Positions 1,912 to 20,830 of a DNA stretch of 64,000 bases are shown here, piece after piece (positions within the stretch are counted from its first letter, which is position 1; each line of letters starts with the position of its first letter). The notes under the pieces were generated by a model. The model did no database searches. It was not told where the DNA came from and saw nothing but the letters and a program-made list of their open reading frames with translations. The translations under genes and the position numbers were made by a program. The stretch lies in the IMG/VR virus record IMGVR_UViG_3300005077_000001, positions 1 to 64,000 of that record; one strand, written 5' to 3'. This DNA comes from a virus (Duplodnaviria; Caudoviricetes).

Positions 1912-2287
1912 AAATATACTCCTGAATGTTTGCTCTTGGGAAATTTAATTCATTAAATTTTCCCATACAATAGCATTCAAGTAGGATAATCTTTTTTAAT
2001 AATTTACCCTAAATTATCTTTTTATTGGGAAAGTGGGTACTTTCTATAAAAAGGATACCACACACAGTTGCGCGCGCTAGCATAAAACGCGCATAAAATT
2101 CACGTAAATCATTAAATATAATTAGACTAATCCCCTCTCAATATTAATAATATTATCGGCAGTTATAAACTGCCCTCTGTACCCCAATATATTTTAATGT
2201 TGATGGGGTATATAATTTTATATTTTAATGTGCATGGGGTTATCATCCGCTATTTGGCGGAACAACAAACCAAAAGGAGGTTTCTAT

Positions 2288-2869: not shown

Positions 2870-2895
2870 ATACATTTTTTAGTACCTTCTAGAAA

Positions 2896-3579: not shown

Positions 3580-3635
3580 ATATATTTAATGTACTAAGGA
3601 TAGAACGAACAACTCAAGAAAGGAGTAAGGTATTC

Positions 3636-3899: not shown

Positions 3900-3937
3900 T
3901 TCAGAACGTACGTGCATAGGAATATGAACAATTTATA

Positions 3938-5225: not shown

Positions 5226-5239
5226 CACGTAATACTATG

Positions 5240-5265
5240 AGGAACCACCAGCAAAGGTGGTTCCT
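5240..5265 (+). terminator. Hairpin terminator candidate
   Basis: AGGAACCACC/GGTGGTTCCT 10-bp inverted repeat; T-tail is weak. Confidence 0.55.
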
Positions 5266-5397
5266 TAATAAAAGCCTTATGGTTAGTACCCTCTAACCCA
5301 AGGATTTTATTTAAAAGTACAATAGGGTAGTTATATTTAAAAGTATCATAGGATTAGTTTTTACGCTACATCCTATAATACCTAATTGGAGGAACAA

Positions 5398-5574: not shown

Positions 5575-5633
5575 GTTTTTAGTTTGTTATTTAAGTAACT
5601 CACTACATAACACATTAACTTAAGGAGTAAACG

Positions 5634-6092: not shown

Positions 6093-6099
6093 TGTCTTT

Positions 6100-6175
6100 G
6101 GTTCCGTAGCTCAGTTGGTAGAGCACCCGGCTCATAACCGGATGGTCCTTGGTTCGAACCCAAGCGGAACCACCA
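6100..6175 (+). tRNA. tRNA with CAT anticodon, probably Ile2 (lysidine type), possibly elongator Met
   Basis: GGTTCCG/CGGAACC acceptor, CTCATAA loop, GTTCGAA T-loop, encoded CCA; G1-C72 excludes initiator. Confidence 0.9.
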
Positions 6176-6180
6176 ACTGC

Positions 6181-6255
6181 TCACCGATAGCTCAATGGTA
6201 GAGCAACGGGCTGTTAACTCGTGGGTTGTAGGTTCGAGTCCTACTCGGTGAGCCA
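6181..6255 (+). tRNA. tRNA-Asn(GTT)
   Basis: TCACCGA/TCGGTGA acceptor, CTGTTAA loop, G73, CCA. Confidence 0.95.
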
Positions 6256-6262
6256 ACCACGT

Positions 6263-6349
6263 GCCTGAGTGGTGGAATTGGTAGACACAAGGGACTTAAA
6301 ATCCCTTGGAGCTTGCTCCGTGACAGTTCGAGTCTGTCCTCAGGCACCA
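6263..6349 (+). tRNA. tRNA-Leu(TAA)
   Basis: GCCTGAG/CTCAGGC acceptor, CTTAAAA loop, long variable arm, CCA. Confidence 0.95.
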
Positions 6350-6366
6350 CGCTTTAAACAATATAA

Positions 6367-6861
6367 ATGAAGGGAGAGACAATGAAGCTTATACTCTGTC
6401 CCCACTGCGGAGACGTTGTTAAACTTACGATTAGGGTCCCGCGTTTTTGTGAGTGTGGAAAAAGTTGGGGCCAATACCACAAAGATGGACTCAACGCTGA
6501 CATCGGTGGAGAAGCTATCCCTTTGGGATTTGCTAACCAGTCTTTTATCAAAGCATTGAAAGACAGACCAGAAGAAGGGGAGGGGTCAAGATTTGAGGCC
6601 TTCGTTATCCCCAAGAAAGCTTCGTCTATGCATAAGAAAAAAGATGCCCCAAGACCCCTCAAAACATGGGTTGCCAGTCTGTGGGGAACTATGATGATAT
6701 TTGTTGCTCCCACTCATGCGGAAGTGGTTGAGCACATTCTGGAGAAGGGTTACGTAGAAGGCATTGGTCCTGTAGATTTGGGAGAACACATTTGGGAACT
6801 ACCCTCTGGCGGCTATCCAGAGAATAAAGTAACCTTGATCTGTAAAGGAAAGAGAGAATGA
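6367..6861 (+). CDS. Hypothetical protein with N-terminal CxxC zinc-ribbon
   Basis: CPHCG...CECG motifs. Confidence 0.7.
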   Translation: MKGETMKLILCPHCGDVVKLTIRVPRFCECGKSWGQYHKDGLNADIGGEAIPLGFANQSFIKALKDRPEEGEGSRFEAFVIPKKASSMHKKKDAPRPLKTWVASLWGTMMIFVAPTHAEVVEHILEKGYVEGIGPVDLGEHIWELPSGGYPENKVTLICKGKRE

Positions 6862-7079
6862 GGGTACCAGAACCAACACAGCTTTACCAGCATTTCAAAG
6901 GTGACTTTTATTTGATTATGGGAGTGGGAAGACACACAGAAACTGGAGAGTGGATGGTGTGTTTCCGAGAGGCTTCTGCTGGAGTTTATTGGTTTAGACC
7001 TTTGAGCATGTGGAACGAAGAAGTAGAATATGAAGGAAAAATGATTCCTAGGTTTAAGCTGATAACAGTGAATATATAG
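6858..7079 (+). CDS. DUF1653-like protein
   Basis: YQHFKGDFY...RHTETGE.MV...WFRPLSMW.EEVE...PRF pattern. Confidence 0.8.
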   Translation: MRVPEPTQLYQHFKGDFYLIMGVGRHTETGEWMVCFREASAGVYWFRPLSMWNEEVEYEGKMIPRFKLITVNI

Positions 7080-7139
7080 GCTGCCGTAATCAAATGGCTG
7101 AAGAAACTGGATGTCTTTCACATAAAGAAAGGAAAAATA

Positions 7140-7361
7140 ATGACACAAGAGGTGCTTTTCGCTTTGATGGTGGGAATTACTTTTGTATGGAGTATAGTAG
7201 GGTATCTACTCCTTTCAAGAGAAAATGTGAGAAACAATGCTTACTATACCCAAAAAATATATAACCTCCATGCCATAATTTTTGAGGTTATAAATATGTT
7301 TCCACCAGAAAAAAGCCGTGAATGCTTGGATAATATCAAGAACAAACTTGAAGAGGGGTGA
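7140..7361 (+). CDS. Small membrane protein
   Basis: N-terminal hydrophobic helix; AAGGA RBS. Confidence 0.55.
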   Translation: MTQEVLFALMVGITFVWSIVGYLLLSRENVRNNAYYTQKIYNLHAIIFEVINMFPPEKSRECLDNIKNKLEEG

Positions 7362-7402
7362 CAAAATTATGTCAACAAAAGTAGAAGCAAGCTGAAAGAT
7401 CA

Positions 7403-7720
7403 ATGGACAATTGTAGAAGAGTTGTTGCAGATTATAAAGGAGGAGTAATGCGTATCTATCGTATTTCTTCGTATGATGGAGAGGAACATAAAACAGTAGA
7501 AATAAATCTGAGTGATGTTCCTCAATGGGGAGCAATACGAGAATTTCTGCAAAGCAGGAATTATAAAAAGATCCTTCACACTATTGCAGAAATGAAGGAG
7601 GATGGAAAGATAACCAGGGAAATTTGTTTTGATTCTCAAGGCAACACGGATTTGAATAAGATGGACCCAGTTGCAAGAGAATTGGTCAAGAAATTTGATC
7701 AACGGAGGCACAAACCATAA
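7403..7720 (+). CDS. Hypothetical protein
   Basis: 105-aa ORF; stop overlaps the next ATG. Confidence 0.6.
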   Translation: MDNCRRVVADYKGGVMRIYRISSYDGEEHKTVEINLSDVPQWGAIREFLQSRNYKKILHTIAEMKEDGKITREICFDSQGNTDLNKMDPVARELVKKFDQRRHKP

Positions 7721-8163
7721 TGGATATCAGAAGTGGCAGGGGATGGCCATCCTCAGCATTAAGTAACTTTGCTCCTCATCCTTTTGAGTTGGATGGAGTG
7801 GAGATTACCTCAATGGAGGGATTCTTACAGTCACTTAAATTCAAAAACACAGAGTTACAACGATACATCTGTACATTAGTAGGTAAGAAAGCTAAGTTTG
7901 CTGGTAAGAAAAAGAAATGGTAGATTACTGGCAAACTTTATTGGAATGGGGAGGAATATGATAGGTTTGGTAAAGAATACCAATTACTCTTAGACAGAGC
8001 ATACCTTGCTATGTTTTGTAACAATACATCTGCAAGAAAAGCTCTTGCGGCAACGGGCAAATCTCTACTCACCCACACTATAGGCAAAAAGGATCAGAAA
8101 ACTACAATCTTGACTGAAGCAGAATTCTGCTCAAGATTGATGAAGATTAGAGCAGAGTTGTAA
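7720..8163 (+). pseudogene. NADAR-family (T4 gp30.3-like) gene interrupted by an in-frame TAG at 7921-7923
   Basis: WPSSALSNFAPHPF..DG...MEGFLQ..K; same frame continues after TAG with LYWNG...TILTEAEF to TAA at 8161-8163, giving 147 codons. Confidence 0.8.
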
Positions 8164-8180
8164 GGAGATCAAGGAGCTAT

Positions 8181-8735
8181 TTGATGAAAGATTACCATAT
8201 TACCAAAGTATACTTTCCTGGAGTTACTTTTTCATATGAAGTTTACGAAGATATCTTCATGAACGGAGAAGTTAGGCTATTCAAAAATAGAAAAGTCTTC
8301 GTTCATGAAATCCCAACCCAGCTTCTTCCTCCACCTTATTGCTTGACACCAGGAACTAAACATTGTTGGTTCCCTGTTGGCAGAGTAGTGTGGAACGTCA
8401 CTCATCCAGATGATATTGCAATGCCTTGGGAGCAGATACACCACGACACTGATAAGTTGAACAACTGTCCGTATAACCTTATCAAATTGCATAAGAATGA
8501 TCATAAAAAATTACATAAGCAAAGAAATCCGCCCACACTTTCATCCAAGATACCAAATGAACTTATAGATTTCATTGATGATAATATGTACAAAATGTGC
8601 AAAAGCTCAATACTACGTAAACTTAGGGAACTGTTTCCTGACAGTTATCCATCTCGTTCTGCTTTCAAAAGGATATTCAGAAAAGTACGGCGTAAACGTT
8701 TAATTGATGAGTTTAAATTGGTGGTGAATCAATGA
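8181..8735 (+). CDS. HNH endonuclease (HNH_3-like)
   Basis: IHHDTDKLNNCPYNLIKLHKNDHKKLH. Confidence 0.75.
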   Translation: MMKDYHITKVYFPGVTFSYEVYEDIFMNGEVRLFKNRKVFVHEIPTQLLPPPYCLTPGTKHCWFPVGRVVWNVTHPDDIAMPWEQIHHDTDKLNNCPYNLIKLHKNDHKKLHKQRNPPTLSSKIPNELIDFIDDNMYKMCKSSILRKLRELFPDSYPSRSAFKRIFRKVRRKRLIDEFKLVVNQ

Positions 8736-9169
8736 TCTCAAAAAAGAAATACGAAAAGTTATTGATGGTATGGCTGAGATGTAGACGAGTGACGCGTGAT
8801 GGAAACATCTACATCAAATTCAAAAGACAGTTCTTCAAAGAATCCAGAGTGGTATATCAACTGCACCACCCTGATGAAGATATATCTGGATTTGATATTC
8901 ATCACAAGGATGTTAATCGTGCAAACAATCATCCTTCAAACCTACAGAAAATTAGCAATATAGATCACATTAAGTTGCACAACAAAGAGCAACTTATAAG
9001 TGCAGCAAGAAGACTTTCGAAGAATATTAAAAACCTGGTACTTAGGGAGCTGCTGGATGGAATTCCAGCAGGTATAATCACAAAAAGGTACAACGTCACA
9101 AGAACAGAGGTTACCTCTGTGTTGTTGTACCACAACAGAAACGTGCAGGAGGTTAGTCATGTTGGATGA
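8732..9169 (+). CDS. HNH endonuclease (HNH_3-like) with C-terminal HTH
   Basis: IHHKDVNRANNHPSNLQKISNIDHIKLH. Confidence 0.85.
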   Translation: MISKKKYEKLLMVWLRCRRVTRDGNIYIKFKRQFFKESRVVYQLHHPDEDISGFDIHHKDVNRANNHPSNLQKISNIDHIKLHNKEQLISAARRLSKNIKNLVLRELLDGIPAGIITKRYNVTRTEVTSVLLYHNRNVQEVSHVG

Positions 9170-9309
9170 TCCTGTGTTGCTGTTTTTGGAGGCACAATTC
9201 CTATTCTATGGGGAAATGTCCGAAGGGGCTAAGTCCTGTAGTGAGAGAATTGCACTAGGAGAAAAACAAAGCATAGTTAATGAACTCATAACAGAAAGGA
9301 ACAAACAAC

Positions 9310-9609
9310 TTGCGTCTATGGCTAGATGATCGACGCCCAGCCCCACCTGGTTGGACTCAAGTTACAAAAGCGGAAGACATTATTAATTTCCTCTCAATCT
9401 TCGGAGATAAAATAACCCATATCAGCCTTGATCATGACCTCGGGTATTACAGGACTGGGTATGATGTGGTTTGTTGGATTGAAGAAATGGTAATTGAGAG
9501 TGGATTCATCCCACCTGAGATCTATGTGCACTCTAACAATCCAGTCGGGAGAGCACGTATGGAAGCAGGAATTCAAAGTATCAAAAGGAAGCTTCAATGT
9601 ATTGAGTAA
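9310..9609 (+). CDS. Cyclic-phosphate-processing receiver-like domain protein
   Basis: LWLDD.RP.P..W, ISLDHDLG, TGYDVVCWIEE, VHSNNPVG pattern. Confidence 0.85.
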   Translation: MRLWLDDRRPAPPGWTQVTKAEDIINFLSIFGDKITHISLDHDLGYYRTGYDVVCWIEEMVIESGFIPPEIYVHSNNPVGRARMEAGIQSIKRKLQCIE

Positions 9610-9845
9610 TGGTTGGTGGAGGAATAATCCTTTCCATTATTCTTGCTTTTGGAGTAACAGCAAGGAGGAAACTGTGAAATCAACAGCTATTCTACTAAGT
9701 GTATTCTTTACAGTTTGGTGGTTTGGTAATGATACGATGCCGTTTGATAATGGCACAGCATGGGTTTCTAATTGTATCCAAACCACTTCCTTCGTGTAAT
9801 TATATATTTAATGATATAAAGGATCATATTAACAGGAGGTGTGGC

Positions 9846-9971
9846 ATGGTGCGTATTCTTAAGCTTAGAAAAAGGGAACAGAGAATCATAGCCAAAAACA
9901 TCGCCAGATGGAAGATTGAACAAGCCGACAGGGAGTTCCGAAAGGCAGTGGAAGAAAACAAAGTAGCATAG
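9846..9971 (+). CDS. Small basic protein (41 aa)
   Basis: AGGAGG RBS; MVRILKLRKREQR...; followed by a terminator. Confidence 0.55.
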   Translation: MVRILKLRKREQRIIAKNIARWKIEQADREFRKAVEENKVA

Positions 9972-9982
9972 TAGCTTCAATA

Positions 9983-10020
9983 GAGGGGCGAAAGCCCCTC
10001 ACACACATACTTTTTTTCAA
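9983..10020 (+). terminator. Hairpin terminator candidate
   Basis: GAGGGGC-GAAA-GCCCCTC with a T-run about 10 nt downstream. Confidence 0.6.
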
Positions 10021-10393
10021 GAAACCTTTGGGTAGTACCCTCTGCCCAATGGTTTTGTACTATAGGGTTAATCAAGACAGGAGGTACTTATGGATATAAT
10101 TACGCTACTATTAATCGCTATTGCTATTCTGAAAGGTATTGAATACCTTTTCGGAATCGAGATTTACATACAAGGGACTCGCCTTGTAATAGAATACGGA
10201 AAGGAAACAAAGCCATGACTAAAGAGGATGAACAGATGGTTGTTGATGAAGTGGTGAAAAAAGTCAAACCAATTCTACAAACATGGATTGATGCCCATAA
10301 GGAAGATGTGAAAAAACAAATCATATCTGAAATTATGGGTAAAAACCACGTCGCCAAAGTGATAATCATCTTATAGAAAAGAAGGAGTAACGG

Positions 10394-10837
10394 ATGTCTC
10401 AGCGAAGGATGATTGCTGACCATATTCATGTTTTAGCAAGGAAAGATACGGAGTTCTTGAAGGAGGAGATCGTGTCTTTTGCTAACGATCATTTTGGAAA
10501 AACATCTTCCGCATATGTAGTGCTCAGTACTTGTCGAAGAGTAGGGTCAATCAAACCTGTGAAAGGACACAAACTATACTTGCAGGTTATGGTTGATCCA
10601 AAACTTCCGCCCGACGAATTCTTCAAAAAGTTGTTGGGACTCAAGAATTCACCTCGACAGGCCGGTGCAACTACACTTGAGGATTTGAGATCTATTGTAA
10701 ATGATCTCAAGAAGAGTGTGGATGCACAAGCTCAAGAAATAAAGCTACTGAGACTCCAGACTACATCAACTCCGCAATCGTCTTTCATGGATTACAGAAC
10801 GCAAATGAGGTTTATGTCCCACCTTATACGTAGGTAA
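10394..10837 (+). CDS. Hypothetical protein with C-terminal coiled coil
   Basis: 147-aa ORF with AAGGAG RBS. Confidence 0.7.
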   Translation: MSQRRMIADHIHVLARKDTEFLKEEIVSFANDHFGKTSSAYVVLSTCRRVGSIKPVKGHKLYLQVMVDPKLPPDEFFKKLLGLKNSPRQAGATTLEDLRSIVNDLKKSVDAQAQEIKLLRLQTTSTPQSSFMDYRTQMRFMSHLIRR

Positions 10838-10909
10838 TAATTGGAATTTTGGGGTAGGATGGGAATAGCTAAACGTAGCGAGGACCTACCCCTTAGTTCT
10901 ATTTCTTGT

Positions 10910-10985
10910 GGGGTCATAACTCAGTTGGTAGAGTATCGCCCTTTTAAGGCGAGAGTCGAAGGTTCGAACCCTTCTGGCCCCACCA
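10910..10985 (+). tRNA. tRNA-Lys(TTT)
   Basis: GGGGTCA/TGGCCCC acceptor, CTTTTAA loop, CCA. Confidence 0.95.
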
Positions 10986-11009
10986 TATAACCAACCTTCT
11001 TCAATCAGT

Positions 11010-11355
11010 GGGGGCGAATTGGATTCGACGTGGGTAATTGAAGCTATTGTCTCGTGCAGGGTGTTGGACCCTATAACCAACAAAACCTCAAAAGAACTGA
11101 CGAAACTTTCGAGTACGCTGAAGCTGCGTAAGCTTCCACTCTTCTAATCTTTCCTACGGAGAGGAATGAGTGAGGTCAGTAGGATAGCTCGATCTCAGTG
11201 TCCAGAAGGGATTGGGTGAAATAGACAAGGACTGCATTCAAAGAAAGTGGTCGAGTCACGTTCTTTGGATAAAGACTAAACACTCGAATACGCACGTAAA
11301 AAGGACAATATGTGGAAGACTTGCGGACGTGGCTTCGACGCCACCGCCTCCACCA
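11010..11355 (+). ncRNA. ssrA: tmRNA; tag (A)DETFEYAEAA* at 11099-11131
   Basis: 5' GGGGGCG..GGATTCGAC; 3' T-arm GTGGC-TTCGAC-GCCAC and CGCCTCCACCA; G3:U70 Ala identity pair; tag ORF after AAGAACT ends AA-stop. Confidence 0.95.
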
Positions 11356-11386
11356 CCAATTCCTTCAAGCAATCATACATTTTTTA

Positions 11387-11517
11387 GAGTCTGGTTATAT
11401 ATGGCAGTTATATCCTGGCCTGCCTAAGTGAGAGATTCTCTCCACCAGACTCGGAGAGGGTGGAAAGAAATGATTGGCAACAATGAGAGGATTGTAGCTG
11501 ATCATTTCTTCCTCTCC
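11387..11517 (+). ncRNA. Two abutting structured elements downstream of the tmRNA
   Basis: GAGTCTGGT/ACCAGACTC three-way junction, then GGAGAGG/CCTCTCC plus AAGAAATGAT/ATCATTTCTT long hairpin. Confidence 0.55.
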
Positions 11518-11539
11518 AAACAAATAAGAAAGGAAACCA

Positions 11540-11785
11540 ATGCCTATAACTTTTGAATCCCCGTATTGGACAAAAGAAGGTGTATGCCTGAAGCATATGG
11601 GTTATGCACCCTGCATTGAATGTCTAGATTCGTACGATCAACATATTCACGCATCTTTAGACAAATATACCATTGAGATGCTTCGATGGGGTTTTGATGA
11701 TGAATACGTTGAGGATGCAATCGAAGATCTAAAACTATTTAACCACAAGCAAATATTGTTCAGAAAATTCACCATGTGCGAATAA
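11540..11785 (+). CDS. Hypothetical protein
   Basis: AAGGA RBS; 81 aa. Confidence 0.6.
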   Translation: MPITFESPYWTKEGVCLKHMGYAPCIECLDSYDQHIHASLDKYTIEMLRWGFDDEYVEDAIEDLKLFNHKQILFRKFTMCE

Positions 11786-11844
11786 TAATATATCTAAAGA
11801 AATACAGGTATATCAATACCTGTTATCACAAGCGGAGGTACAAC

Positions 11845-11991
11845 ATGACTAGAGCGTTTATCGGATGCCTTTTGGCATTGGTTGTTTGGTTCAAAGGGAA
11901 GTGGGCTTGGGATTGGATGAACAGTACTGCCCAAGCAATTCAAGAGGAATATGATTTCAAATTCCCTTGGCAAAAAAAGAAAAAGGCTTAA
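11845..11991 (+). CDS. Small membrane peptide (48 aa)
   Basis: GGAGG RBS; MTRAFIGCLLALVVWFKG. Confidence 0.6.
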   Translation: MTRAFIGCLLALVVWFKGKWAWDWMNSTAQAIQEEYDFKFPWQKKKKA

Positions 11992-12262
11992 GAAATTCCC
12001 AATTCATAGTATTTACCATATATACTATTAAGCAGTGAGCTTGGCAACCTTGCTGCTTTTTTTTGCTACATATCTTCAAGCATGAATAAATTGGCTCTTA
12101 TTCGCTTGGAGGGTATCACTGCCTTGTGAATTCGCCAACAACGAATACAGGGTTAAGTACCTAAATATGTAGCTTGAAGCATTTGGTATTCATCAAGCAA
12201 TTGATGTTGATGTTATTAATTGATACATAATACGCATCTAACTTTTCTGTAAGGAGTTTTAG

Positions 12263-12442
12263 ATGACCTGTCGAGCCTGTGGATCACTGAATATCCATAA
12301 CATCATTGAGGATATTTATGAATGTCAGGATTGTGGGTATCAGTGGGAGAAAAATAACAAGGAAGACGAATTGATTTGTTTACCTCTTGATATTTACCTC
12401 AAGTACAAGGAGAATGCTAAAGAACCATACATCATACGTTAA
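12263..12442 (+). CDS. Small zinc-ribbon protein (59 aa)
   Basis: AAGGAG RBS; CRACG...CQDCG. Confidence 0.6.
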   Translation: MTCRACGSLNIHNIIEDIYECQDCGYQWEKNNKEDELICLPLDIYLKYKENAKEPYIIR

Positions 12443-12510
12443 ATTGGTGTGCTATGCTTGCGCTATTTTTTTATTTAATGTATAATAGTATTTAAGAAAG
12501 GAGCTGCACA

Positions 12511-12756
12511 ATGAAACAGATAACAGCCAAAGATCTGTGTCAGGCGTTGGATAGGCGTGTACAAAACTCACCTATCACTAGCCTCAACCCATTATATATG
12601 GAACCGCCTTTGTCCTATTTCAGGATGAGGGCATGTAAGATCACAGAGCCAGTTGTAACTGCCAATAATCTTGGCATCTCAGACAAAGAACTCGCCACAT
12701 TCGTTGAGAAATTCCTCAATGAGAAACCAGACCCAGATCCTAAGTTCTGGGCCTGA
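12511..12756 (+). CDS. Hypothetical cassette protein
   Basis: AAGGAG RBS after the promoter motif. Confidence 0.65.
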   Translation: MKQITAKDLCQALDRRVQNSPITSLNPLYMEPPLSYFRMRACKITEPVVTANNLGISDKELATFVEKFLNEKPDPDPKFWA

Positions 12757-12901
12757 ACACGTTGTTTAATGTAGGTTTGCACATGGAAACCGCGAGAACG
12801 GTTTTCTTTTTATTATAATATTATATTCTTAATATATTTAATGATGTATAGGATAACGTGTATGCGTTAGTCCTGTAAAGACTTTACAAAAGGAGACAGT
12901 C

Positions 12902-13072
12902 ATGGCTGAACTTACACCGGAAGAAAAAGCAGCAAAAGCAAGAAAGAAGGAATCCGCAAAGCAATTTGGAAAGGTTGTTGCAGGAACAACTCTCGGCTCG
13001 TTGATTGCTGCGGGATTGATCTTCATCGGCAAGATGGTGATCGGCTGGTTTACCAGATCCGCCGCCGCTTAA
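12902..13072 (+). CDS. Small membrane protein (56 aa) ending RSAAA
   Basis: AAGGAG RBS; MAELTPEEKAAKARKKESAKQFGKVVAGTTLGSLIAAGLIFIGKMVIGWFTRSAAA. Confidence 0.7.
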   Translation: MAELTPEEKAAKARKKESAKQFGKVVAGTTLGSLIAAGLIFIGKMVIGWFTRSAAA

Positions 13073-13374
13073 GCGATGTACCGGCATGGTGGGGGTAGGT
13101 AGATAGTAACCAAAATACCTACTCCCGCCTATCTTAATTATCTTAATATGGAAGTAAATAAGCCGCACGAGCGGCTTAATATTAACTATGCACATAAATA
13201 CGAAAAAAGGAGGCTACCGTTGGTATGGGTATGGTTAATGGCTAACTCAACGTTAGCTGCTCACAGTAAAGAAGCTGACCTGGATTTGTTCATTTCTCCA
13301 GGTCAATGGATTGGCAATCCCGAAGATCTTCATCATCTTTGGAAATTCTGTACAAAGATATAAGGAGGTTATTC

Positions 13375-13797
13375 ATGTTTGAATTGGAACGATCTACCAT
13401 AGAGGTATTATACTCTTATGGACCAAAAAACAATGTTGCTGCAAGTCCTAAAGAGATGATATTGCCTATCATTGAGGCTATGCAGTCTCAAATCAAAAGT
13501 GGCATCGCACAATACAACACCAAAGAAGCAATGCTTTCATTAAAGAAAGTTATTTGCGCCCCGGTGTCTGAATCCTGGAATCCTCGGCTATCTATTGAAG
13601 AAGCCTTGTGGAAAAGTCGAAACATCAAACCATACGAAAGCTATGTTTACATGGAAAACTATCTCATGGAACATTATAGCCAGAGTATGGACATTCAGCC
13701 AGACGAGGATTTGTTCCTCATTGGTAATTTCTTTGACAGTTTTCTGTATTTGGTCTCTAGGAGCATGGATTCAGTGTGGAGAATACCAAACCGATGA
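13375..13797 (+). CDS. Hypothetical protein
   Basis: AAGGAGG RBS before ATG at 13375. Confidence 0.65.
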   Translation: MFELERSTIEVLYSYGPKNNVAASPKEMILPIIEAMQSQIKSGIAQYNTKEAMLSLKKVICAPVSESWNPRLSIEEALWKSRNIKPYESYVYMENYLMEHYSQSMDIQPDEDLFLIGNFFDSFLYLVSRSMDSVWRIPNR

Positions 13798-13903
13798 TTA
13801 ATCCCTACTTTTTAGAGAGATACCTGCGGTTTCTCTCTTACATGTGTGCGTAAATAATATATATAATGTAATATAGTATTAAATTAAAACAAAGGAGATC
13901 AGA

Positions 13904-14155
13904 ATGGTAAGAAACCATGACATTCAAAGTGAGGTAATAATAGTCGGTGGTGCAGATGCAAGCATCATTGTTTTGTGTGATGATCCTAAAATTGGATTCA
14001 TTGCATTGAACGGGGAAAGAGGAAATTCCACTGTGCGCCTTAGAATAGGTGACTTTGTGGATTACTCAATTATGGGCGTAAAGTGGAGTGGAAGATTCAC
14101 AGGAGATGTGACTCCTGGAGGTAGTGCAATCTTCGAAAGGAGTGTTCATGATTGA
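13904..14155 (+). CDS. Hypothetical protein
   Basis: AAGGAG RBS after the promoter motif. Confidence 0.65.
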   Translation: MVRNHDIQSEVIIVGGADASIIVLCDDPKIGFIALNGERGNSTVRLRIGDFVDYSIMGVKWSGRFTGDVTPGGSAIFERSVHD

Positions 14156-14687
14156 AGAAGCCCGCTCTTTGGCAATGCAGCTGCACGCCAAGCAGATCAG
14201 AAAATCCAACGGGTTGCCTTATGTGACCCATCTGGAGGAGGTAGCCAATATCGTTGCCAATTACAAAGGCAGTGATATAGCTATTGCTGCTGCGTGGTTG
14301 CACGACAGTATTGAAGATCAGCAGGTGGATGAATCGCTCATTCACCCCGCTGTCTTGTCTGTTGTTAAGGAACTTTCCGAGGAAAAGAGTCTTTCTTGGG
14401 AAGTTCGTAAGAAGAAGGCAGTTGATGATATTGCCCTTCTGTCTGCTGATGCCTTATTGGTTAAAGCAGCAGATGTTCTCTCCAACCTGCGTGGGATCAT
14501 GAGAGATAGCTATAAGAATCCAGAGTTCTGGAAGCCGTTCAAGAGGGGAAGAAGACAAACGATAGGCTTCTATACCTCTTGTGTTCTTGCCATTGAACGA
14601 CAAGGGTGGAAGGGTTATATAGCTATTCCGTTGTGTTTGGAACTCGACAACATGCTCACGTTGATTAGTCATCATGACTTTTCGTGA
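14148..14687 (+). CDS. HD-domain hydrolase, RelA/SpoT hydrolase (Mesh1/SAH)-like
   Basis: H..Q.RK....PYVTHLEEVA, AAWLHDSIED, V.ELSE, VKAAD.LSNL. Confidence 0.88.
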   Translation: MIEEARSLAMQLHAKQIRKSNGLPYVTHLEEVANIVANYKGSDIAIAAAWLHDSIEDQQVDESLIHPAVLSVVKELSEEKSLSWEVRKKKAVDDIALLSADALLVKAADVLSNLRGIMRDSYKNPEFWKPFKRGRRQTIGFYTSCVLAIERQGWKGYIAIPLCLELDNMLTLISHHDFS

Positions 14688-14894
14688 GCAATTACCGTTG
14701 TAGAGAAGACCACTCGGTCTTCTTTACATACGGGCACGTACATAAATGGGAGAGGAATGTATGCAGTTGTACAAGCCATAACGTACGACAATCTCATAAT
14801 AACCAATCCCTAGTGGATGTGGATGAAGAATAACTGCAAGTAATTGCGGTTTTCTTCAACGCATACATAATAAAATATATTTAAGGAATTATAG

Positions 14895-15245
14895 GGAAGA
14901 TTGACTGAATTAACAGGTGGCGTGCTTAATGGATTCGCCAGTACCATTAAGACGAAGGTATGAAGTAGAACCGGGCGACTACACTGGTCTAAACCTATAT
15001 ACCCACAATGCTGCACCTTTTGCCGCCCAGAAGGTGTAAGAGTCTTCCCAACTGGAATAGGGAGCTTTGAGGTGAAGCACCTGAAAGAATGGTAGCCCAA
15101 CGGTTTTGTCCACAACAAAGTGCGGGGCAGGAAAAGAAAGAAAAGTAGATTGTGGGCTCTACTTGCCTAGTCCTCCAACTCCTGAATTAAACTACCTAGG
15201 GGAGACTAGGAAACCTCACCACAAGAAAAGCTGCTTAGGCGGTTT
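14895..15245 (+). ncRNA. Candidate multi-pseudoknot ncRNA (about 340 nt) between a promoter motif and a hairpin
   Basis: Stems 14925-32/14944-51, 15014-19/15031-36, 15143-48/15159-64; loops complementary to 14918-22, 14973-77 and 15002-09 respectively. Confidence 0.7.
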
Positions 15246-15370
15246 TTCTTATACGCACACATCAGTTTTAAACAAAAAAGAAACCGCTATTGCCAATGCT
15301 TGATTGCTCACGGCATGGCGGTTTTCTTTCATATGTGTGTATTTAATTTAATGTACAATAGGAGGTAAAC

Positions 15371-15766
15371 ATGAATCCCTTATATCACGGCTCATTAAAG
15401 GCGTTAGATGTAGTTAAGCCTTTCCCTTCTAACTTAACAAACAACATACCTGTAGTCTTTGCTACTCCAATTTGGATTATTGCATTGATTATGGGTACAG
15501 GGTGGAAGGATAACAATATTAACTGTGGCTATGTGAACGGGGCTCTCACCGTAACAGAAGTCACAAAAGATGCGTTTGAAAGATTCTTTCATAGACAAAC
15601 GTATGTTTACACATTTGACTATGATGAGTCTTTATGGTACCACCACCATAACTTATGGGCATGTGAGTTTGTATCTTATCAAGAACAGATTCCTATTCAT
15701 ATTCAGACTGTAGAAGATCCATTTGTGCATATACAAGAACATGCACATTTGGTATACTACAAATAG
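15371..15766 (+). CDS. Hypothetical cassette protein
   Basis: GGAGG RBS; 131 aa. Confidence 0.7.
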   Translation: MNPLYHGSLKALDVVKPFPSNLTNNIPVVFATPIWIIALIMGTGWKDNNINCGYVNGALTVTEVTKDAFERFFHRQTYVYTFDYDESLWYHHHNLWACEFVSYQEQIPIHIQTVEDPFVHIQEHAHLVYYK

Positions 15767-15849
15767 GAAGCTGCGGCTTCCTTTATACACGTACATGTAA
15801 TTATTTATATATATAATGTACAATAGAATAAAAAAGAAAGGAGAATAGT

Positions 15850-16059
15850 ATGATAACCAGAGTGGGAGAACTCCCCACGTATGACCCCTTGACAGGGGAG
15901 CGTCTGTATCTTTCTATCCATTCAGACGGGAGCGTCATCATTGAGTGGGTAGATAAGGATGGCGAAGTCACATTCGCCAAACTGATAAAAACCATGGACG
16001 AGCTGCATAAGGCAATTCGTGCTTTTGGTTTCAACCCTCCTCCACGAAAGGAGAGATGA
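15850..16059 (+). CDS. Hypothetical cassette protein
   Basis: AAGGAG RBS. Confidence 0.6.
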   Translation: MITRVGELPTYDPLTGERLYLSIHSDGSVIIEWVDKDGEVTFAKLIKTMDELHKAIRAFGFNPPPRKER

Positions 16060-16265
16060 ATGCACTGGATAAAGTTCCAGGCAACGAATTTCGAGATACG
16101 AGAGTTCTTGGGAACATGTTGCCCCGAACTTTACAGCTCGGAGATGTCAGTGTTCCTAAGAAAGGGCAAGAGAGGCCAGTCCCCTACTCTCCTTCTCGAC
16201 GGTGGATCAAAGCTGACTGCCAAGGGTGGCGGTTGGTACAGGATCAGCACATACAGTGCGTTTGA
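16056..16265 (+). CDS. Hypothetical protein
   Basis: AAGGAG RBS; ATGA overlap with the upstream gene. Confidence 0.5.
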   Translation: MNALDKVPGNEFRDTRVLGNMLPRTLQLGDVSVPKKGQERPVPYSPSRRWIKADCQGWRLVQDQHIQCV

Positions 16266-16530
16266 GAATGACATTCCTTTCTGCATTCCGGGTAAAATAG
16301 GAAGTGCGTCATTCTAGTTAATGAAGAAACTGCAAGCAATTGCGGTTTCTCTCAACCGATTCATATACCGATATATTCCGATATGTGTATGCATACGCAT
16401 GGGAATAAAGATTTAACTATCTGTATTTATTGATAAACCGACTTCCCCGCCCCCAAATAAAAAAGGTTATCGTGTGTAGTATATATCTAATGTTATATAG
16501 TATTAACATAGAAACAAGAAAGGAGAAGTC

Positions 16531-16866
16531 ATGCTTACATGTAGAGTAGAAACTGATCTAGATGCAGGATGTATGAGGGTAACCGATCTACATACGAGAG
16601 TAGAAGTAGGTAGATGCTATATTTCATGGCATCCTGATTATACTATTATCTCGTATATAGAGGTAGCAGAGTATGCCCGTAGAAGAGGAGTTGGGGCATT
16701 TATACTTGATTTCATCCAAAAGGAAAACAAGAAGACACTTATATTAGGAACTCAATCAATGAATGTTCAAGCAAGAGCATTTTATAAAGCAATTGGATTT
16801 AAAGAAGTACAACGAGTAAGGATAGACCCAGGAAGTTTAATGTTGGAAAGACTTTGTTCTATCTAA
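16531..16866 (+). CDS. GNAT-family acetyltransferase
   Basis: IEVAEYARRRGVGAFIL (motif A), NVQARAFYKAIGF (motif B). Confidence 0.85.
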   Translation: MLTCRVETDLDAGCMRVTDLHTRVEVGRCYISWHPDYTIISYIEVAEYARRRGVGAFILDFIQKENKKTLILGTQSMNVQARAFYKAIGFKEVQRVRIDPGSLMLERLCSI

Positions 16867-16899
16867 AGGAGACTGCGGTTTCCTTTTTTACATTTACAA

Positions 16900-17400
16900 T
16901 TGTTTATAGGAATAGATTTATTAATTATTACTAATAGACAGATATAGGTTTTATATTATTATGAATGTAGGGAAATTCCTATATTTATGGGTATAGATTT
17001 ATTAATTATTTTATAAGGATAGATACACATTTATATTATTATAGGTATAGAGCAATTAATAATAAATTTTGTGGTTTTAGGTCTTTGTAAATAGGTGTTA
17101 TTATTTATAAAGATGGGGAGGTATAATGATATAAACAATTAAATTTATGTTATTATAATGGTATGCATTTATTTACAAAGGTAAGATGTATAAGTATTTA
17201 TATTCATTTACTATATGAATAGACTTGCGCATTTATAAGTAAGGGTTTTTATAGCTACTTTTTAATTAATAAATGCTAATGTAATTAAATAGATAGATAC
17301 AAATTTATATTGTTATAAGTATATGTTATTATTAATTTATTAATGTTATCCTAAAGGTGCTTTTTTATCTCTCTCGCCGTTTGTGCCTTCATTCTTTTAT
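16900..17400. other. Very AT-rich non-coding tract, possible origin or terminus region
   Basis: No ORF of 60 aa or more; repeated ATAGATTTATTAATTATT (about 16912 and 16995). Confidence 0.4.
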
Positions 17401-17427
17401 TTATTTTTATTTATATTTGATGAATAA

Positions 17428-17556
17428 TGGGTATGGTCACGGATCTAAATGGGTGTCTCAAAGGAAGAGGCACCAGTGATAGGATAACGTGGCTAATAAT
17501 CTGCTGCCACACTGTCTAAGGTCAGAGACCTGGCAGATACTCTGGCACCATACCCA
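17428..17556 (+). ncRNA. Candidate multi-stem ncRNA (129 nt)
   Basis: Closing helix TGGGTATGGT/ACCATACCCA enclosing three hairpins; GC island within AT-rich DNA. Confidence 0.6.
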
Positions 17557-17677
17557 CTCAAAAACCCTTGGCGGTTTTTATTTCCCGCATTTATATGATT
17601 AAATACGTATTCTTCCATAATTGGATACTTATGTACTTTTTGTTCCCCACGTAGTCAAAACCACCCTTTTTTATCGT

Positions 17678-17862
17678 ACCTAATAATTTCATATACTTAT
17701 ACATTTGTGTATGCTTTTATAATTACATTTTTGTTCTAGCCTATATACAAAAATGACCTTAAATGCACCCACCTAATAATTTCATATACTTACGTAAACC
17801 AACCTATAATTATATAATCCTTTTTTGTTCTCCTCTATATACGAAAATGACCTAAAATATCT
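17678..17862. repeat. Imperfect tandem repeat, two units of about 93 bp
   Basis: ACCTAATAATTTCATATACTTA at 17678 and 17771; TATACRAAAATGACCT in both units. Confidence 0.75.
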
Positions 17863-17969
17863 ACGAATTTATTTATATAGTCATTATACCTATTAAATTG
17901 GTATTCCTTAATACCTATGTATCTATTTAATTAAGGTGTTGCTTATAGTAAAGAAAGGAGAAGGTTGAT

Positions 17970-18611
17970 ATGAAGGAAAAGAGAATATTTACTAGTAGGT
18001 TAAAATATATAAAGGTAAAGGAATTTATTTTATGCGGATTTGATGTGATTGAGTTATGTGATTATTTTCATATTTATAATAACAAAAGAACAAATTTCAT
18101 TAGCTTTAGTAATAAGATATTACACTTTGATAAAGAATTTAATAATTGTGATGTTTGTGATAAAAAACTTCCCTCTACTTGTTTTGATATAGATAAAAAA
18201 ACAAATATATTAAAAACCATTTGTAAATTATGCTTATTTAAACAGCAAGTAATCACTCAAAATTATAAACTAAGAACTAAAGCACAGTTACTTAAAGAAA
18301 AGGCAATTCAATATAAAGGAGGAAAATGTGAACTTTGTGACTGTAAAACACAGATACTGTCTTCTTATGATTTCCATCATTTAAATCCTTCAGAAAAAGA
18401 TTTTAATATATCTACTGCTTTAGCACAAACTAATGACTTAGAAAAAATAAAACCTGAATTAGATAAATGTATACTACTATGTGGTAATTGTCATAGGTTT
18501 ATTCATTCTATTGAATATGAGAACTTATTAGTTGGAGCAATGAATCAATCAATTAAAATAACACCTTCTAAGAAACAATTCAAAAAGTTATTAAGTAAAT
18601 CTTTACAATAA
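17970..18611 (+). CDS. Zn-binding HNH-type endonuclease
   Basis: GGKCELC, YDFHH..PSEKDF, ELDKCILLCGNCHRFIH. Confidence 0.85.
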   Translation: MKEKRIFTSRLKYIKVKEFILCGFDVIELCDYFHIYNNKRTNFISFSNKILHFDKEFNNCDVCDKKLPSTCFDIDKKTNILKTICKLCLFKQQVITQNYKLRTKAQLLKEKAIQYKGGKCELCDCKTQILSSYDFHHLNPSEKDFNISTALAQTNDLEKIKPELDKCILLCGNCHRFIHSIEYENLLVGAMNQSIKITPSKKQFKKLLSKSLQ

Positions 18612-18677
18612 ATTTTTATTTATAGCGCGCGCCATTTATATATTTAATATGAGATTATAAAGGAAAAGGAGGGGTGA

Positions 18678-18863
18678 ATGTTAACGCTGTGGCTGTACTG
18701 TAACTCTGTACTGAGTAGATGTGGAACTTCCTACTTTGACCAATTGGCAGACCATTTTTTGGAAATCTCAGTTGAGGCACAGAGTAAGAGCACATCAAGG
18801 TCTTCTTCTCATTCAACTCCGAAGGAAACTTGGGAGATAGCTATGAAGAAAGAAACCGCTTAG
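18678..18863 (+). CDS. Hypothetical cassette peptide
   Basis: AGGAGG RBS after the promoter motif; ends in the GAAACCGC hairpin. Confidence 0.5.
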   Translation: MLTLWLYCNSVLSRCGTSYFDQLADHFLEISVEAQSKSTSRSSSHSTPKETWEIAMKKETA

Positions 18864-19126
18864 GCGGTTTTCTTTACCCACACATATTTATATATTTAAT
18901 AATTTATAGAATATCATTTATGTGTGTGCCCATAAGAACACCATACGACAGGACTTGCTGAATCATTCCCAAGACGCAAGCCGATAAGTGAACGGAGGAT
19001 AAGAAGATGTTTCTCCTCGTTGTCCTGAGCATGACATAAAAAGGCTCATTTCTTTCTTTATTTATTTCTTTATTTAAATGTACCACCCTTGGTACATTCC
19101 TTCCCCTTGATATATTTAATGTATTA

Positions 19127-19310
19127 TGGGTTATCTTTGACGGGCTGAGTGGGGGATAACGGCGACGTCTTTATTGCCTTGCCCTTCCTCGTTTGCCGGG
19201 CCGCTTAGATAACCCACGGAAAAAGGAGGCAAGCCAAAACTGGGTATAAGGCCACGAGTCTCCTGCGAGTTTATCCTGTTCTCGCTTTATGCTCTAATAA
19301 CAGGGACCCA
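19127..19310 (+). ncRNA. Candidate pseudoknotted ncRNA
   Basis: TGGGTTATCT/AGATAACCCA helix starts at the promoter motif; GCGAG/CTCGC loop CCTGTT is complementary to AACAGG 19299-19304. Confidence 0.6.
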
Positions 19311-19457
19311 AAGAAATCAATAAAAAAAAGTTTGAGTGGGATGAACAATGGAGAAATCGCTGAGCACATTAGCGGTTTTTTCATACACGCGTATAATAAT
19401 ATATTTAATGTTGTATAGAGATGTGTTAGCATCTTAATGAAGAAAGGAGGAAATCAC

Positions 19458-19739
19458 ATGTCTGATTTCTTCGTTCAAAAGATGTTTGCCTTGGCAGAGG
19501 CCGAGGCCAAGCGGCAGGGCAAGGAAGAGTTCGCAAAAGAACTCATGCAGGGGCTGATGCAGGGGTTGCAGATGATTGCCCCCATCATCGGTTCCATGAT
19601 TCAGGCCGACAGTCAGCCCAACACTTACGCCATCAAAGAGGAAATCCGGCGTGAGTTTCAGTCCGAGATGGACAAACGCGAAGACCGGCTGCATAAGAAG
19701 CTGGAAGAAATTGTCAAGGCAATCAAGCCCGGAATCTAG
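19458..19739 (+). CDS. Hypothetical coiled-coil protein, GC-rich codon usage
   Basis: AAGGAGG RBS; 93 aa. Confidence 0.75.
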   Translation: MSDFFVQKMFALAEAEAKRQGKEEFAKELMQGLMQGLQMIAPIIGSMIQADSQPNTYAIKEEIRREFQSEMDKREDRLHKKLEEIVKAIKPGI

Positions 19740-20081
19740 CCTCGACGCCCCGTGGTCTTCATTCAATTAGCCGCTTGTTCCCCTCCCAAGCGGTTTTCTT
19801 TTATACGTACATATATGGGAATTTATTTTTATATATTTAATGTTGTATAGGATTAGGGGTTATAAGGAAAAGGGAGGGCAGTCATGGTTGAAATCAAAGT
19901 GAATGGCGTGATTTATCGCATCGTAAGGCGATAGACTGCCAATGCATATCGGCACTAAGAGCCAAAAAATAGTTATTGAAACCGTGCTTTAGCGGTTTCT
20001 TTATTCACGTGTATGTATTTATATATTTAACGTATTATAGGGATGGATTTATTCATCTCAATCTTTGATGGAGGTTGGGCA

Positions 20082-20192
20082 ATGATCTGGAATATCTTAG
20101 GCACTCTTTTCAAAATAATTACCACAATGGTGTTGGGGGTGATAGTAGTCATTGCAGGAAACACCCTGTACGATAACATTAAAAACAAATAG
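20082..20192 (+). CDS. Small membrane peptide (36 aa)
   Basis: GGAGG RBS; MIWNILGTLFKIITTMVLGVIVVIAGNTLYDNIKNK. Confidence 0.6.
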   Translation: MIWNILGTLFKIITTMVLGVIVVIAGNTLYDNIKNK

Positions 20193-20443
20193 CCGCCTAG
20201 CGGCTTTTTTACTTTGCACGTTTATTTATATATTTATGGATTTATAGGAGTTAGAAGCTCCAAAAAGTGATGCTGCTAATATCCTGTGGGGTGTTAGCAG
20301 TTTTTTTGTTTATGTTTATATTTATGGGTTTATAGAAATGGTAAAGGCACTCACAAAAATAAGCGGTATTAATTAAATAATAATAATATATAAGGTATAA
20401 TAGGCTACAGTGGTAGTTTCTCATCTCTCTACGGAGGTGTACC

Positions 20444-20590
20444 ATGGATCGTCCTTGGTATATCAGTCTTCTCATCTCCCTCGGAGTAGCCCTCGGCGGA
20501 GGGTTGATCGGATACTTGGCCCACAGCCTGTTTCCTTGGCACAGGGGATGGAGCCGGAACAACAAAGGCTCCATCCATTCCCAGAAGTAG
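20444..20590 (+). CDS. Small membrane peptide (48 aa)
   Basis: GGAGGT RBS; MDRPWYISLLISLGVALGGGLIGYLAHSLF...; GC hairpin downstream. Confidence 0.65.
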   Translation: MDRPWYISLLISLGVALGGGLIGYLAHSLFPWHRGWSRNNKGSIHSQK

Positions 20591-20804
20591 TCTGTCGCCC
20601 AGGCCGAAAGGAAGCCCGCCCCGAAGGGCGGCTTTCTTAACCCCCTGGCCCTATACCCTTTCCAGAACGGTTTTTTATAGGAAAAGGAGCCTCCTGGTTG
20701 GTACACGCTCTCCAGCCCCTAAATAACGATAGGATAGTATTCACATATTTACACACATCTACATCTACATACCATAATTTATTTATTCTTCTCCATACAC
20801 GTAC

Positions 20805-20830
20805 ATAAAAAAACCTCCCGTAGGAGGTTG
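20805..20830 (-). terminator. Terminator at the convergence of the + and - blocks
   Basis: AACCTCC-CGTA-GGAGGTT with an upstream A-run (U-tail on the minus strand). Confidence 0.75.

Follow-up and report, generated by a model that had tools for sequence, protein, structure and literature searches.

To our knowledge, RNA polymerases (RNAPs) fused to a tape-measure protein have been studied only in one small group of Thermus phages. The part of the work on phage P23-45 drawn on here (Chaban et al. 2024, PMC10770324) describes a tape-measure-fused RNAP, gp96, that occupies a 9-kb region and initiates at 14 copies of TTATTCYTTTA, a strongly conserved AT-rich motif with its end at the start site; seven terminators in the gp96 region have a common 26-nt motif, and entry of gp96 into the cell together with the DNA has been shown. 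A second described system, the promoter-stem-loop (PeSL) cassettes of T4-type phages, uses strong sigma-70-like promoters (-35, -10, and AT-rich upstream element), and PeSL-mediated indels and mini-circles have been demonstrated experimentally (Arbiol et al. 2010, PMC2839356; Comeau et al. 2014, PMC4122927). Here we describe an array of terminator/promoter modules in the first 64 kb (hereafter, the window) of the 256,335-bp IMG/VR phage record IMGVR_UViG_3300005077_000001, which is 97% complete according to CheckV and has no end repeats. The array spans positions 12,470-20,640 (~8 kb).

The array is almost certainly a set of insulated transcription units. A G+C-rich hairpin with a T-run precedes most copies of a promoter-like block and stands at the end of every unit, and between hairpin and block there is often a tract of alternating purines and pyrimidines (RY tract). 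Because the same module order is found in P23-45/P74-26, the best reading, which we hold with moderate confidence, is that the array represents the most densely packed section of an early regulon (the + strand gene block at 2.2-20.6 kb) read by the phage's injected tape-measure-fused polymerase. The initial annotation of this stretch had proposed a modular array of about 15 units, ending at 20310, with either a small protein or an RNA without an open reading frame (ORF) as cargo. The head-to-tail terminator/promoter modules and both kinds of cargo are indeed there, but we count 17 promoters rather than ~15, and the array extends to ~20,640.

The consensus of the block, TATATTTAATGTNNTATAG, searched with up to two mismatches over the whole 256,335-bp genome, gave 13 forward matches and 1 reverse match versus 0 for the reversed control pattern, and all 13 forward matches fall within 3.5-20.0 kb. 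With looser searches and a profile we located 17 sites at 12,470-20,403, all on the + strand, which align as ttatTtA-TATATTTAATG-ta.TATAG-g (also written ttatTtA-TATATTTAATG-N3-TATAG) over a contiguous informative stretch of ~24 nt. The last G of the block (G19) is present in all 17 sites, T7 and A8 do not vary, and G11 (13 of 17 sites) and T15-A18 are, with G19, among the best conserved positions. TATATTTAATG is the commonest 11-mer of the whole genome, and the only profile match above 12 bits outside the block family in the genome is at 48901 on the - strand, within an ORF. The blocks (P1 to P17, all given from their first base) and the features between them are the following:

12470..12488, +, promoter P1, with an 81-aa ORF (12511-12756) behind it
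12785..12811, +, terminator hairpin and T-run (CGGTTTTC)
12833..12851, +, promoter P2, RY tract downstream (12856-12867), 56-aa membrane peptide (12902-13072)
P2 unit past a weak terminator (13159-13178), +, 47-aa ORF (13220-13363) and 140-aa ORF (13375-13797)
13815..13852, +, terminator with GCGG at the loop/stem junction, RY tract directly after it (13839-13852)
13858..13876, +, promoter P3, 83-aa ORF (13904-14155) and HD_4 phosphohydrolase gene (14148-14687)
14704..14744, +, terminator after the HD gene and RY tract (14725-14744), no promoter next
14832..14869, +, terminator (twin of 16328) and RY tract (14859-14869)
14876..14894, +, promoter P4, with an ORF-less RNA of ~355 nt behind it
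14894..15250, +, ORF-less structured RNA, first helix from the invariant G, ending in the GCGGTTTTT terminator, RY tract 15250-15262
15282..15342, +, long terminator hairpin (AAACCGC...GCGGTTT) and RY tract (15330-15342)
15343..15361, +, promoter P5, Shine-Dalgarno (SD) sequence GGAGG from the invariant G, 131-aa ORF (15371-15766)
15765..15799, +, terminator GGAAGC-TGCG-GCTTCC and RY tract (15784-15799)
15808..15826, +, promoter P6, 69-aa ORF (15850-16059) and 85-aa ORF (16060-16317)
16328..16401, +, terminator (twin of 14832), then RY tract (16381-16401)
16482..16500, +, promoter P7, 111-aa GNAT gene (16531-16866)
16865..16892, +, terminator with GCGG across the loop/stem junction
16893..17969, +, AT-rich ORF-free zone of 1.1 kb (GC ~0.28), two sets of dispersed direct repeats, decayed promoter-like copies
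17412..17590, +, variant promoter P8 (17412-17430), ORF-less multi-helix RNA, GGCGGTTTTT terminator
17970..18611, +, HNH endonuclease gene, 213 aa, G+C content at third codon positions (GC3) 0.15
18637..18663, +, variant promoter P9, longer spacing, preceded by GCGCGCGC, 61-aa ORF (18678-18863)
18848..18887, +, terminator AAACCGC-TTAG-GCGGTTT and RY tract (18879-18887)
18891..19105, +, promoter P10 (18891-18909), unit of ~200 nt with a 10-aa ORF (19007-19039) as sole SD-led ORF, RY tract 18919-18929
19111..19381, +, promoter P11 (19111-19129), ORF-less RNA of ~250 nt ending in the GCGGTTTTTT terminator
19382..19418, +, RY tract (19382-19395) and promoter P12 (19400-19418), 93-aa ORF (19458-19739), GC3 0.71
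19772..19850, +, terminator, RY tract (19802-19817), and promoter P13 (19832-19850), 16-aa ORF (19884-19934)
19978..20040, +, terminator, RY tract (20006-20018), and promoter P14 (20022-20040), 36-aa membrane peptide (20082-20192)
20191..20247, +, terminator AGCCGC-CTA-GCGGCT, short RY tract, promoter P15 (20229-20247)
P15 cargo, +, ORF-less unit of ~60 nt ending in the hairpin 20272-20308
20317..20403, +, promoters P16 (20317-20335) and P17 (20385-20403), the latter before a 48-aa membrane peptide (20444-20590)
20612..20640, +, last + strand terminator (GCGGCTT), where the + block meets a convergent - block

The placement of SD sequences and the starts of RNA helices bear on where transcription begins. 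In the P5 unit, the SD sequence begins at the invariant G of the block, and in three ORF-less RNAs the closing helix starts within block positions 17-19; the block would be a promoter whose transcripts start at its end, at the invariant last G or 1-2 nt earlier. A long contiguous motif abutting +1 is a hallmark of phage-polymerase promoters. Sigma-70-type -35/-10 pairs are not in excess (68 in the canonical scan versus 64 expected), and whichever hexamer register is taken within the block, A-11 and T-7 occur together in at most 11 of the 17 sites. Since they have neither a -35 element nor a consistent -10 register, the blocks look like promoters of a phage polymerase.

Early promoters read by the host RNAP are known from the T4 early, T5 pre-early, and SPO1 early regions. 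The blocks could likewise be strong early promoters for the host primary-sigma RNAP, with no role for a tape-measure polymerase; they would then consist of a -10-like hexamer (TAATGT at 7-12 or TAtTAT at 12-17) and an AT-rich upstream element, without a -35. The TATAAT-like hexamers within the block, the invariance of T7 and A8, and three sites that read TGTAYAAT would suit such an enzyme, as would terminators made of a canonical hairpin and T-run, and PeSLs and most phage early promoters rely on host RNAP (PMC2839356). We nevertheless consider this explanation rather unlikely. The missing -35 and the lack of excess in the canonical scan speak against it, A-11 and T-7 are found together in no more than 65% of sites in any register, and the strongest conservation falls at positions that sigma-70 ignores (G11, and TATAG with its invariant G). 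Moreover, the 12-17 register would place the start of the P5 transcript 6-8 nt past the hexamer, so that the unit at 15343 would lose its own SD GGAGG.

It is very improbable that the block is the repeated binding site of a DNA-binding protein (a replication, partition, packaging, or silencing factor) instead of a promoter. Decayed copies do crowd together with direct repeats in the ORF-free, AT-rich stretch at 16.9-17.9 kb, much like an iteron field, but all strong copies point the same way and lie just past a terminator, either 0-40 nt ahead of an SD-led ORF or on the first base of a structured RNA, an arrangement expected of promoters.

There are 18 hairpin/T-run terminators in the array, on the + strand, 14 of these ~18 with the heptamer GCGGYTT. 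Between 12,450 and 20,400 the + strand has 14 copies of it, versus 0.5 expected from base-shuffled sequence, and 20 of the 34 copies in the genome (both strands) are found at 12.7-21.4 kb. A terminator scan of 2-21.9 kb gave 34 hairpin and T-run sites versus 13.9 expected. The heptamer is kept either as the 3' arm (AAACCGC...GCGGTTT) or straddling loop and stem, the latter in three hairpins (13826, 15773, and 16875), which agrees with the initial annotation that GCGG is conserved whether it lies in a stem or in a loop; the near-identical hairpins reported there at about 14832 and 16328 are confirmed as twins with 95% identity over 21 nt. Several hairpins have no block after them (13159, 14704, and 15228), and together with the T-runs this identifies the hairpins as terminators. 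A promoter hairpin of the N4 type, which is short and set at a constant spacing from the start site, was rejected, since the hairpins precede T-runs and lie at a variable ~25-60 nt upstream of the block.

An RY run of at least 8 nt (containing C or G) is present within 35 nt upstream of 10 of 18 promoters versus 5.7% of background windows (binomial p ~1e-8), and a run of at least 10 nt upstream of 7 of 18 versus 1.5% of background. Between the tract and the pyrimidine tail of its terminator lie 0-1 nt, and 0-14 nt separate it from the block that follows. It is also found after terminators that have no promoter behind them (13187, 14725-44, and 15250), and among crude terminator calls an RY run of at least 10 nt lies within 30 nt in 6 of 29 in the array versus 1 of 181 outside the block. 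Where a promoter has no upstream tract, the tract is found just downstream of the block (P2, P10, and also the sediment relative described below). The same element follows a terminator of the opposite strand:

20794..20829, -, terminator without GCGG (read from 20829 to 20794), then a 13-nt RY tract

The RY tract therefore accompanies terminators on either strand, and it belongs to the module, mostly to its terminator side rather than to the promoter. The order hairpin, RY tract, block that had been proposed for all units is thus frequent but not universal, with a tract in 11 of 17, the tract being anchored to the terminator tail. As a -35 element the tract was rejected because of its varying distance to the block and because it may be downstream of it.

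The candidate for the enzyme that reads the blocks is within the tape-measure gene, a single ORF of 12,315 aa (102050-138997). At aa 1994 this protein has the motif NLDFDGD, the only such motif in the genome, and the Pfam family RNA_pol_Rpb1_2 matches over the site with an E value of 0.013, which falls short of the family cut-off. A HMMER search of aa 901-2100 against 1.8 billion representatives recovered 16 relatives. The best of them is 50% identical and comes from a 20-kb contig that is wholly tape-measure gene. An AlphaFold model of aa 901-2100, built with the sequences of 14 relatives, has a mean predicted local distance difference test score (pLDDT) of 56 and is confident at residues ~500-1090 (pLDDT 70-90). 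In an exhaustive structural search with this model (VIA-align), residues 497-891 matched the largest RNAP subunit of nine entries over its N-terminal ~400 residues (Z 6.0-8.1), namely the archaeal clamp 3qqc, phage AR9 (7s00_d), plastid PEP, Pol I, Pol II, African swine fever virus, Sulfolobus, the beta-prime subunit of M. tuberculosis, and vaccinia; the RNAP matches are interleaved with generic helical-bundle matches to model residues 896-1090. A Pfam search of the genome found no T7-type RNAP, Rpb2_6, or sigma-70 region 2. It seems likely from these results that a beta-prime-like RNAP module lies within the tape-measure protein.

The strands of the genes divide the genome into four blocks. 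The + block at 2.2-20.6 kb, whose second half is the array, has a - block on either side (251.7-256.2 kb plus 0-2.1 kb, and 20.7-48.2 kb), and the long + block of structural genes comes after the latter. Over the whole + block (2200-20650) the GC content is 0.37-0.47 versus 0.30-0.33, with GC3 of 0.27-0.47 in its first half; tRNAs, a tmRNA, and ORF-less structured stretches are found there too, so that it looks like one compositionally distinct early domain. At 2.2-12.4 kb it has 6-8 weaker copies of the promoter block, two pairs of which (2187/2217 and 5307/5333) stand at the heads of other operons:

2187..2237, +, two tandem variant promoters (extra T; ATGG for ATAG), sites 2187 and 2217, at the head of the + block
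3581..3599, +, promoter family member found by pattern search and profile
5307..5351, +, two tandem variant promoters of TATTTAAAAG type, sites 5307 and 5333
9803..9821, +, promoter family member found by pattern search and profile

At the point where the - and + blocks diverge (2059-2124) there is a partial copy of the block on the - strand at 2124, followed by a series of RY tracts (CACACACA, TGCGCGCGC, and ACGCGCATA, given on the + strand). The genome also has a second long promoter-like motif (~30 nt), made of an A-run, TATTTCCTTAGTACTTAT, and TATAG-AGG, that heads operons on both strands, in the window at 27237(-), 40314(-), 48190(-), and 48303(+), with both arms of the divergent point at 48.2-48.4 kb bearing it, and elsewhere in the genome at 183269(+), 183880(+), and 226062(+).

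If the array is an early regulon of the injected polymerase, the blocks would be read by the cellular-type RNAP module in the tape-measure protein and not by the host sigma-70/sigma-A holoenzyme. The tape-measure protein would enter the cell together with the DNA, as gp96 of P23-45 does, and the terminators with their conserved GCGGYTT 3' arm would insulate every unit. The phage would then produce many short transcripts independently of one another within minutes of the start of infection; these would code for tiny proteins, membrane peptides, the HD phosphohydrolase, and the GNAT protein or act as small RNAs. Their products presumably serve host takeover or counter-defense, judging only from position and gene size. 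The 11-23-nt identical patches of the modules could let units be gained, lost, or swapped, which would explain the mosaic base composition.

Several points weigh against this reading. The promoter, the start site, and the polymerase assignment are all inferred from sequence. The block is AT-rich, and the TATAAT-like hexamers within it leave room for the host RNAP; the terminators resemble ordinary intrinsic terminators, which work on bacterial RNAP; and TATAG also ends the second motif and may be a shared initiation preference of an enzyme that transcribes the whole genome. The contig has no terminal repeat and starts within a - strand gene block, and the placement of the regulon at the genome end that enters the cell first is an unproven inference from the sequence. 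On the side of the enzyme, the beta-like half of the candidate RNAP was modeled poorly and the structural Z scores are moderate. The polymerase module had no match in phmmer and profile searches of the PDB sequences or in a tblastn search of the GenBank phages, and Foldseek with the whole 1200-aa model gave none either. Finally, there is no second polymerase gene in the regulon, the only polymerase-like D-x-D-G-D motif being that of the tape-measure ORF.

The SD-led ORFs behind the blocks code for proteins of 81, 56, 47+140, 83+179, 131, 69+85, 111, 213, 61, 10, 93, 16, 36, and 48 aa. By Pfam, the 179-aa protein is an HD_4/HD phosphohydrolase (PF13328, E value of 2.6e-10) and the 111-aa protein a GNAT (PF13508/PF00583), while the 56-, 36-, and 48-aa proteins were judged by eye from their sequences to be membrane peptides; the three kinds of cargo named by the initial annotation are therefore represented. 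The remaining proteins scanned belong to no Pfam or PHROG family, apart from the 213-aa HNH endonuclease, whose gene is the largest in the array. At least four paralogous copies or fragments of this gene, 27-75% identical, are found elsewhere (41299-41562, 59716-60246, and, in genome coordinates, 243835-245134). The AT-rich zone that adjoins it (16893-17969) flanks a 129-nt structured RNA and has direct repeats, for example at 16903/16984/17248 and 17728/17822, and several decayed promoter-like copies, for example at 16981; possible explanations are an origin-like field, a protein-binding field, or the scar left when a homing endonuclease inserted.

There is no credible ORF in the units behind P4, P8, P11, and P15, and the P10 unit has only the 10-codon ORF, so that the prediction of at least four ORF-less segments holds with four to five units found. 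Folding far beyond that of shuffled sequences, and thus significant, was found in two of them, 14894-15252 (z of -3.56, with 0 of 100 shuffles as stable) and 17420-17590 (z of -3.12); it is unremarkable in the P11 unit (z of -1.56) and the P10 unit (z of -1.36). Rfam, at both gathering and E-value thresholds, found no family in any ORF-less unit, its matches being the tRNAs and tmRNA upstream. The micro-ORFs at 19007-19039 (10 codons) and 19884-19934 (16 codons) have a perfect GGAGG ribosome-binding site and are the sole coding potential of their units.

Relatives are few. We found none closer than ~50% protein identity in IMG/VR, the GenBank phages, and a metagenome collection. At the DNA level the GenBank phages matched only fragments of the HNH gene, relatives of the HD protein are at most 39% identical and in unrelated contexts, and searches with the 140-aa and 93-aa proteins found no relatives. 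Scanning IMG/VR for the exact motif gave 54 matches, single and chance-like. The only sizeable relative, IMGVR_UViG_3300029286_000009 (259,732 bp), shares core genes at about 50% identity (~30-65% by protein). It has no homolog of anything at 3.6-34 kb of the present genome, which places the array in a hypervariable part of the genome. It also lacks the promoter motif, and no motif is densely repeated in its variable region; a motif of GGGTACTATAAT type, related to the second motif described above, occurs in it at 10 sites. The ends of its contig match the present genome at 99.9 kb and 158.8 kb, and ~58 kb that would include the giant tape-measure gene are missing from the assembly, though its completeness is estimated at 96%. 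Because the contig breaks exactly where the tape-measure gene is expected, this relative cannot serve as a control that has neither polymerase nor motif.

The 131-aa gene has one homolog, 49% identical, in wetland-sediment contigs, known from the DNA of a short contig and the gene map of a 16.8-kb Joint Genome Institute (JGI) contig from sample 3300075153; the metagenome scan found this short contig and no further relative. The homolog is the third gene of a three-gene operon, preceded by a terminator, an RY tract (ACACGCACACGCA), and a block ending in ATTATAG, and followed by a terminator and further blocks of TATATATTTAAGG type; its terminators have no GCGGYTT. Since terminator, RY tract, and block are kept in the sediment phage at 49% protein identity, the signals outlast divergence at the level of genes. 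In the array itself, identity between modules is confined to patches of 11-23 nt that coincide with functional motifs, and the cargoes, HNH excepted, have no paralogs. GC3 of the array genes ranges from 0.15 to 0.71, while that of the other 265 genes is 0.227 +/- 0.053 (maximum of 0.46). This compositional mosaic fits a piecemeal acquisition of cargo between conserved signals, without implying that the signals are recombination sites.

Alternatively, the uniformity of the modules could be mainly an evolutionary footprint, left by PeSL-like mobile cassettes that were homogenized by recombination between modules, possibly with excised circles. We regard this as possible but would advance it only tentatively; it is compatible with either polymerase and would add to those explanations rather than exclude them. 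The range of GC3 among neighboring cargoes and the absence of the region from the ~50% relative are in its favor, as is the fact that the 131-aa gene is alone here and third in an operon in the sediment phage, with modules bounding both. Lineage-specific concerted evolution predicts the lack of GCGGYTT in the terminators of that relative, the twin hairpins are similar beyond functional need, and an HNH endonuclease with four paralogs lies inside the array. The lack of paralogs among the other cargoes and the limits of the common patches speak against cassettes of this kind, and the persistence of the promoter family in the sediment phage points to functional constraint instead.

If the array is the early regulon of the injected polymerase, it provides a candidate promoter and terminator, replicated 17 times, for another and very distant tape-measure-fused RNAP, in a jumbo phage. 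Several units of this regulon would make only small structured RNAs, an unusual cargo for early cassettes, and the strongly mosaic set of ORFans would be a natural place to seek counter-defense functions. If the host polymerase reads the blocks, the array would be a neat but ordinary PeSL-like early region. Features specific to the present array are its proposed connection with a tape-measure-fused polymerase, its RNA cargo, and its RY element.

Among systems with phage polymerases, the class II/III promoters of T7 and the early promoters of phiKZ and AR9, which are read by virion RNAPs, also consist of a long contiguous block ending at +1, are present in many copies, and define a temporal regulon. 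The TATAG ending appears to resemble the -4 to +1 region of T7 promoters. The present genome differs from these phages in having no T7-type single-subunit RNAP, the candidate being a two-barrel enzyme fused to a tail protein, and its units are far shorter and terminated individually.

Like the PeSLs, to which the initial annotation had compared it, the array has composite terminator/promoter modules that flank small, mostly ORFan genes in a hypervariable region; transcription of each unit is predicted to be insulated from its neighbors, and repetition of the modules supplies homology through which units could be shuffled. The analogy is sound as regards architecture, setting, and mosaic composition but fails for the promoter, which is sigma-70-like in PeSLs and without -35 or consistent -10 register here. 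The PeSL stem-loop can overlap the promoter, whereas in the array a hairpin never overlaps the promoter but lies upstream of it, with a T-run behind the stem, and mini-circles and indels have been seen for PeSLs, whereas the array is known from the sequence of one genome. We know of no RNA cargo described for PeSLs.

The closest likeness is to the Thermus phages P23-45, P74-26, and G20c. Reading the homologous region of P74-26 directly (38-40.5 kb of its record), we found eight full pre-early modules with the order conserved hairpin (GGAGGGCG-CTAG-CCCTCC), 5-6 T, 7-8 nt, CCGTACGG or CATACTACGCGCAC, 16-30 variable nt, and promoter. The middle tract is made of the words CCGTACGG and ACGCGCAC, the former palindromic, and is an element that the searched passages of the P23-45 paper do not mention (PMC10770324). 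The likeness to our RY tract is suggestive and depends on these conserved words, not on the length of RY runs, for which the statistic in P74-26 is weak (4 of 12, p of 0.057). By analogy, such modules might be three-part "hand-over stations" for a polymerase that does not diffuse, that is, a signal to terminate, be retained, and reinitiate. A tape-measure-fused enzyme at the DNA entry pore would release a short RNA, stay on the DNA threading past it, and restart at the next block. The signal would be formed by the conserved terminator, the palindrome-rich RY tract (placed as CCGTACGG is in the Thermus phages), and the start-abutting promoter, and would be common to tape-measure-fused polymerases of unrelated phages; the array would, in addition, give rise to phage small RNAs that serve as effectors in the first minute. 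We consider this proposal speculative and on balance improbable.

The two systems differ in several respects. Their motifs are unrelated (TTATTCYTTTA versus TATATTTAATG-N3-TATAG, 11 versus ~24 nt) and have no sequence in common, and there is no detectable sequence similarity between the RNAP modules. The Thermus units are leaderless protein genes, while the units here have SD leaders and include four to five ORF-less RNA units; the regulon described here has no second, non-virion RNAP gene; and the phage is a 256-kb low-GC jumbo phage with a fused protein 2.5 times longer. What they share is an RNAP module inside a giant tape-measure protein (predicted here), ~14-17 copies of one start-abutting AT-rich motif on one strand over 8-9 kb of small genes, and terminators conserved in sequence as well as in shape. 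They also share the order of hairpin, T-run, a GTAC/ACGCG-rich tract on the terminator side, and a promoter at variable distance. If the favored reading is right, this grammar of terminator, GTAC/RY tract, and promoter, which the searched passages of the Thermus work leave unmentioned, would be common to both systems and may reflect the cycling of a tethered polymerase.

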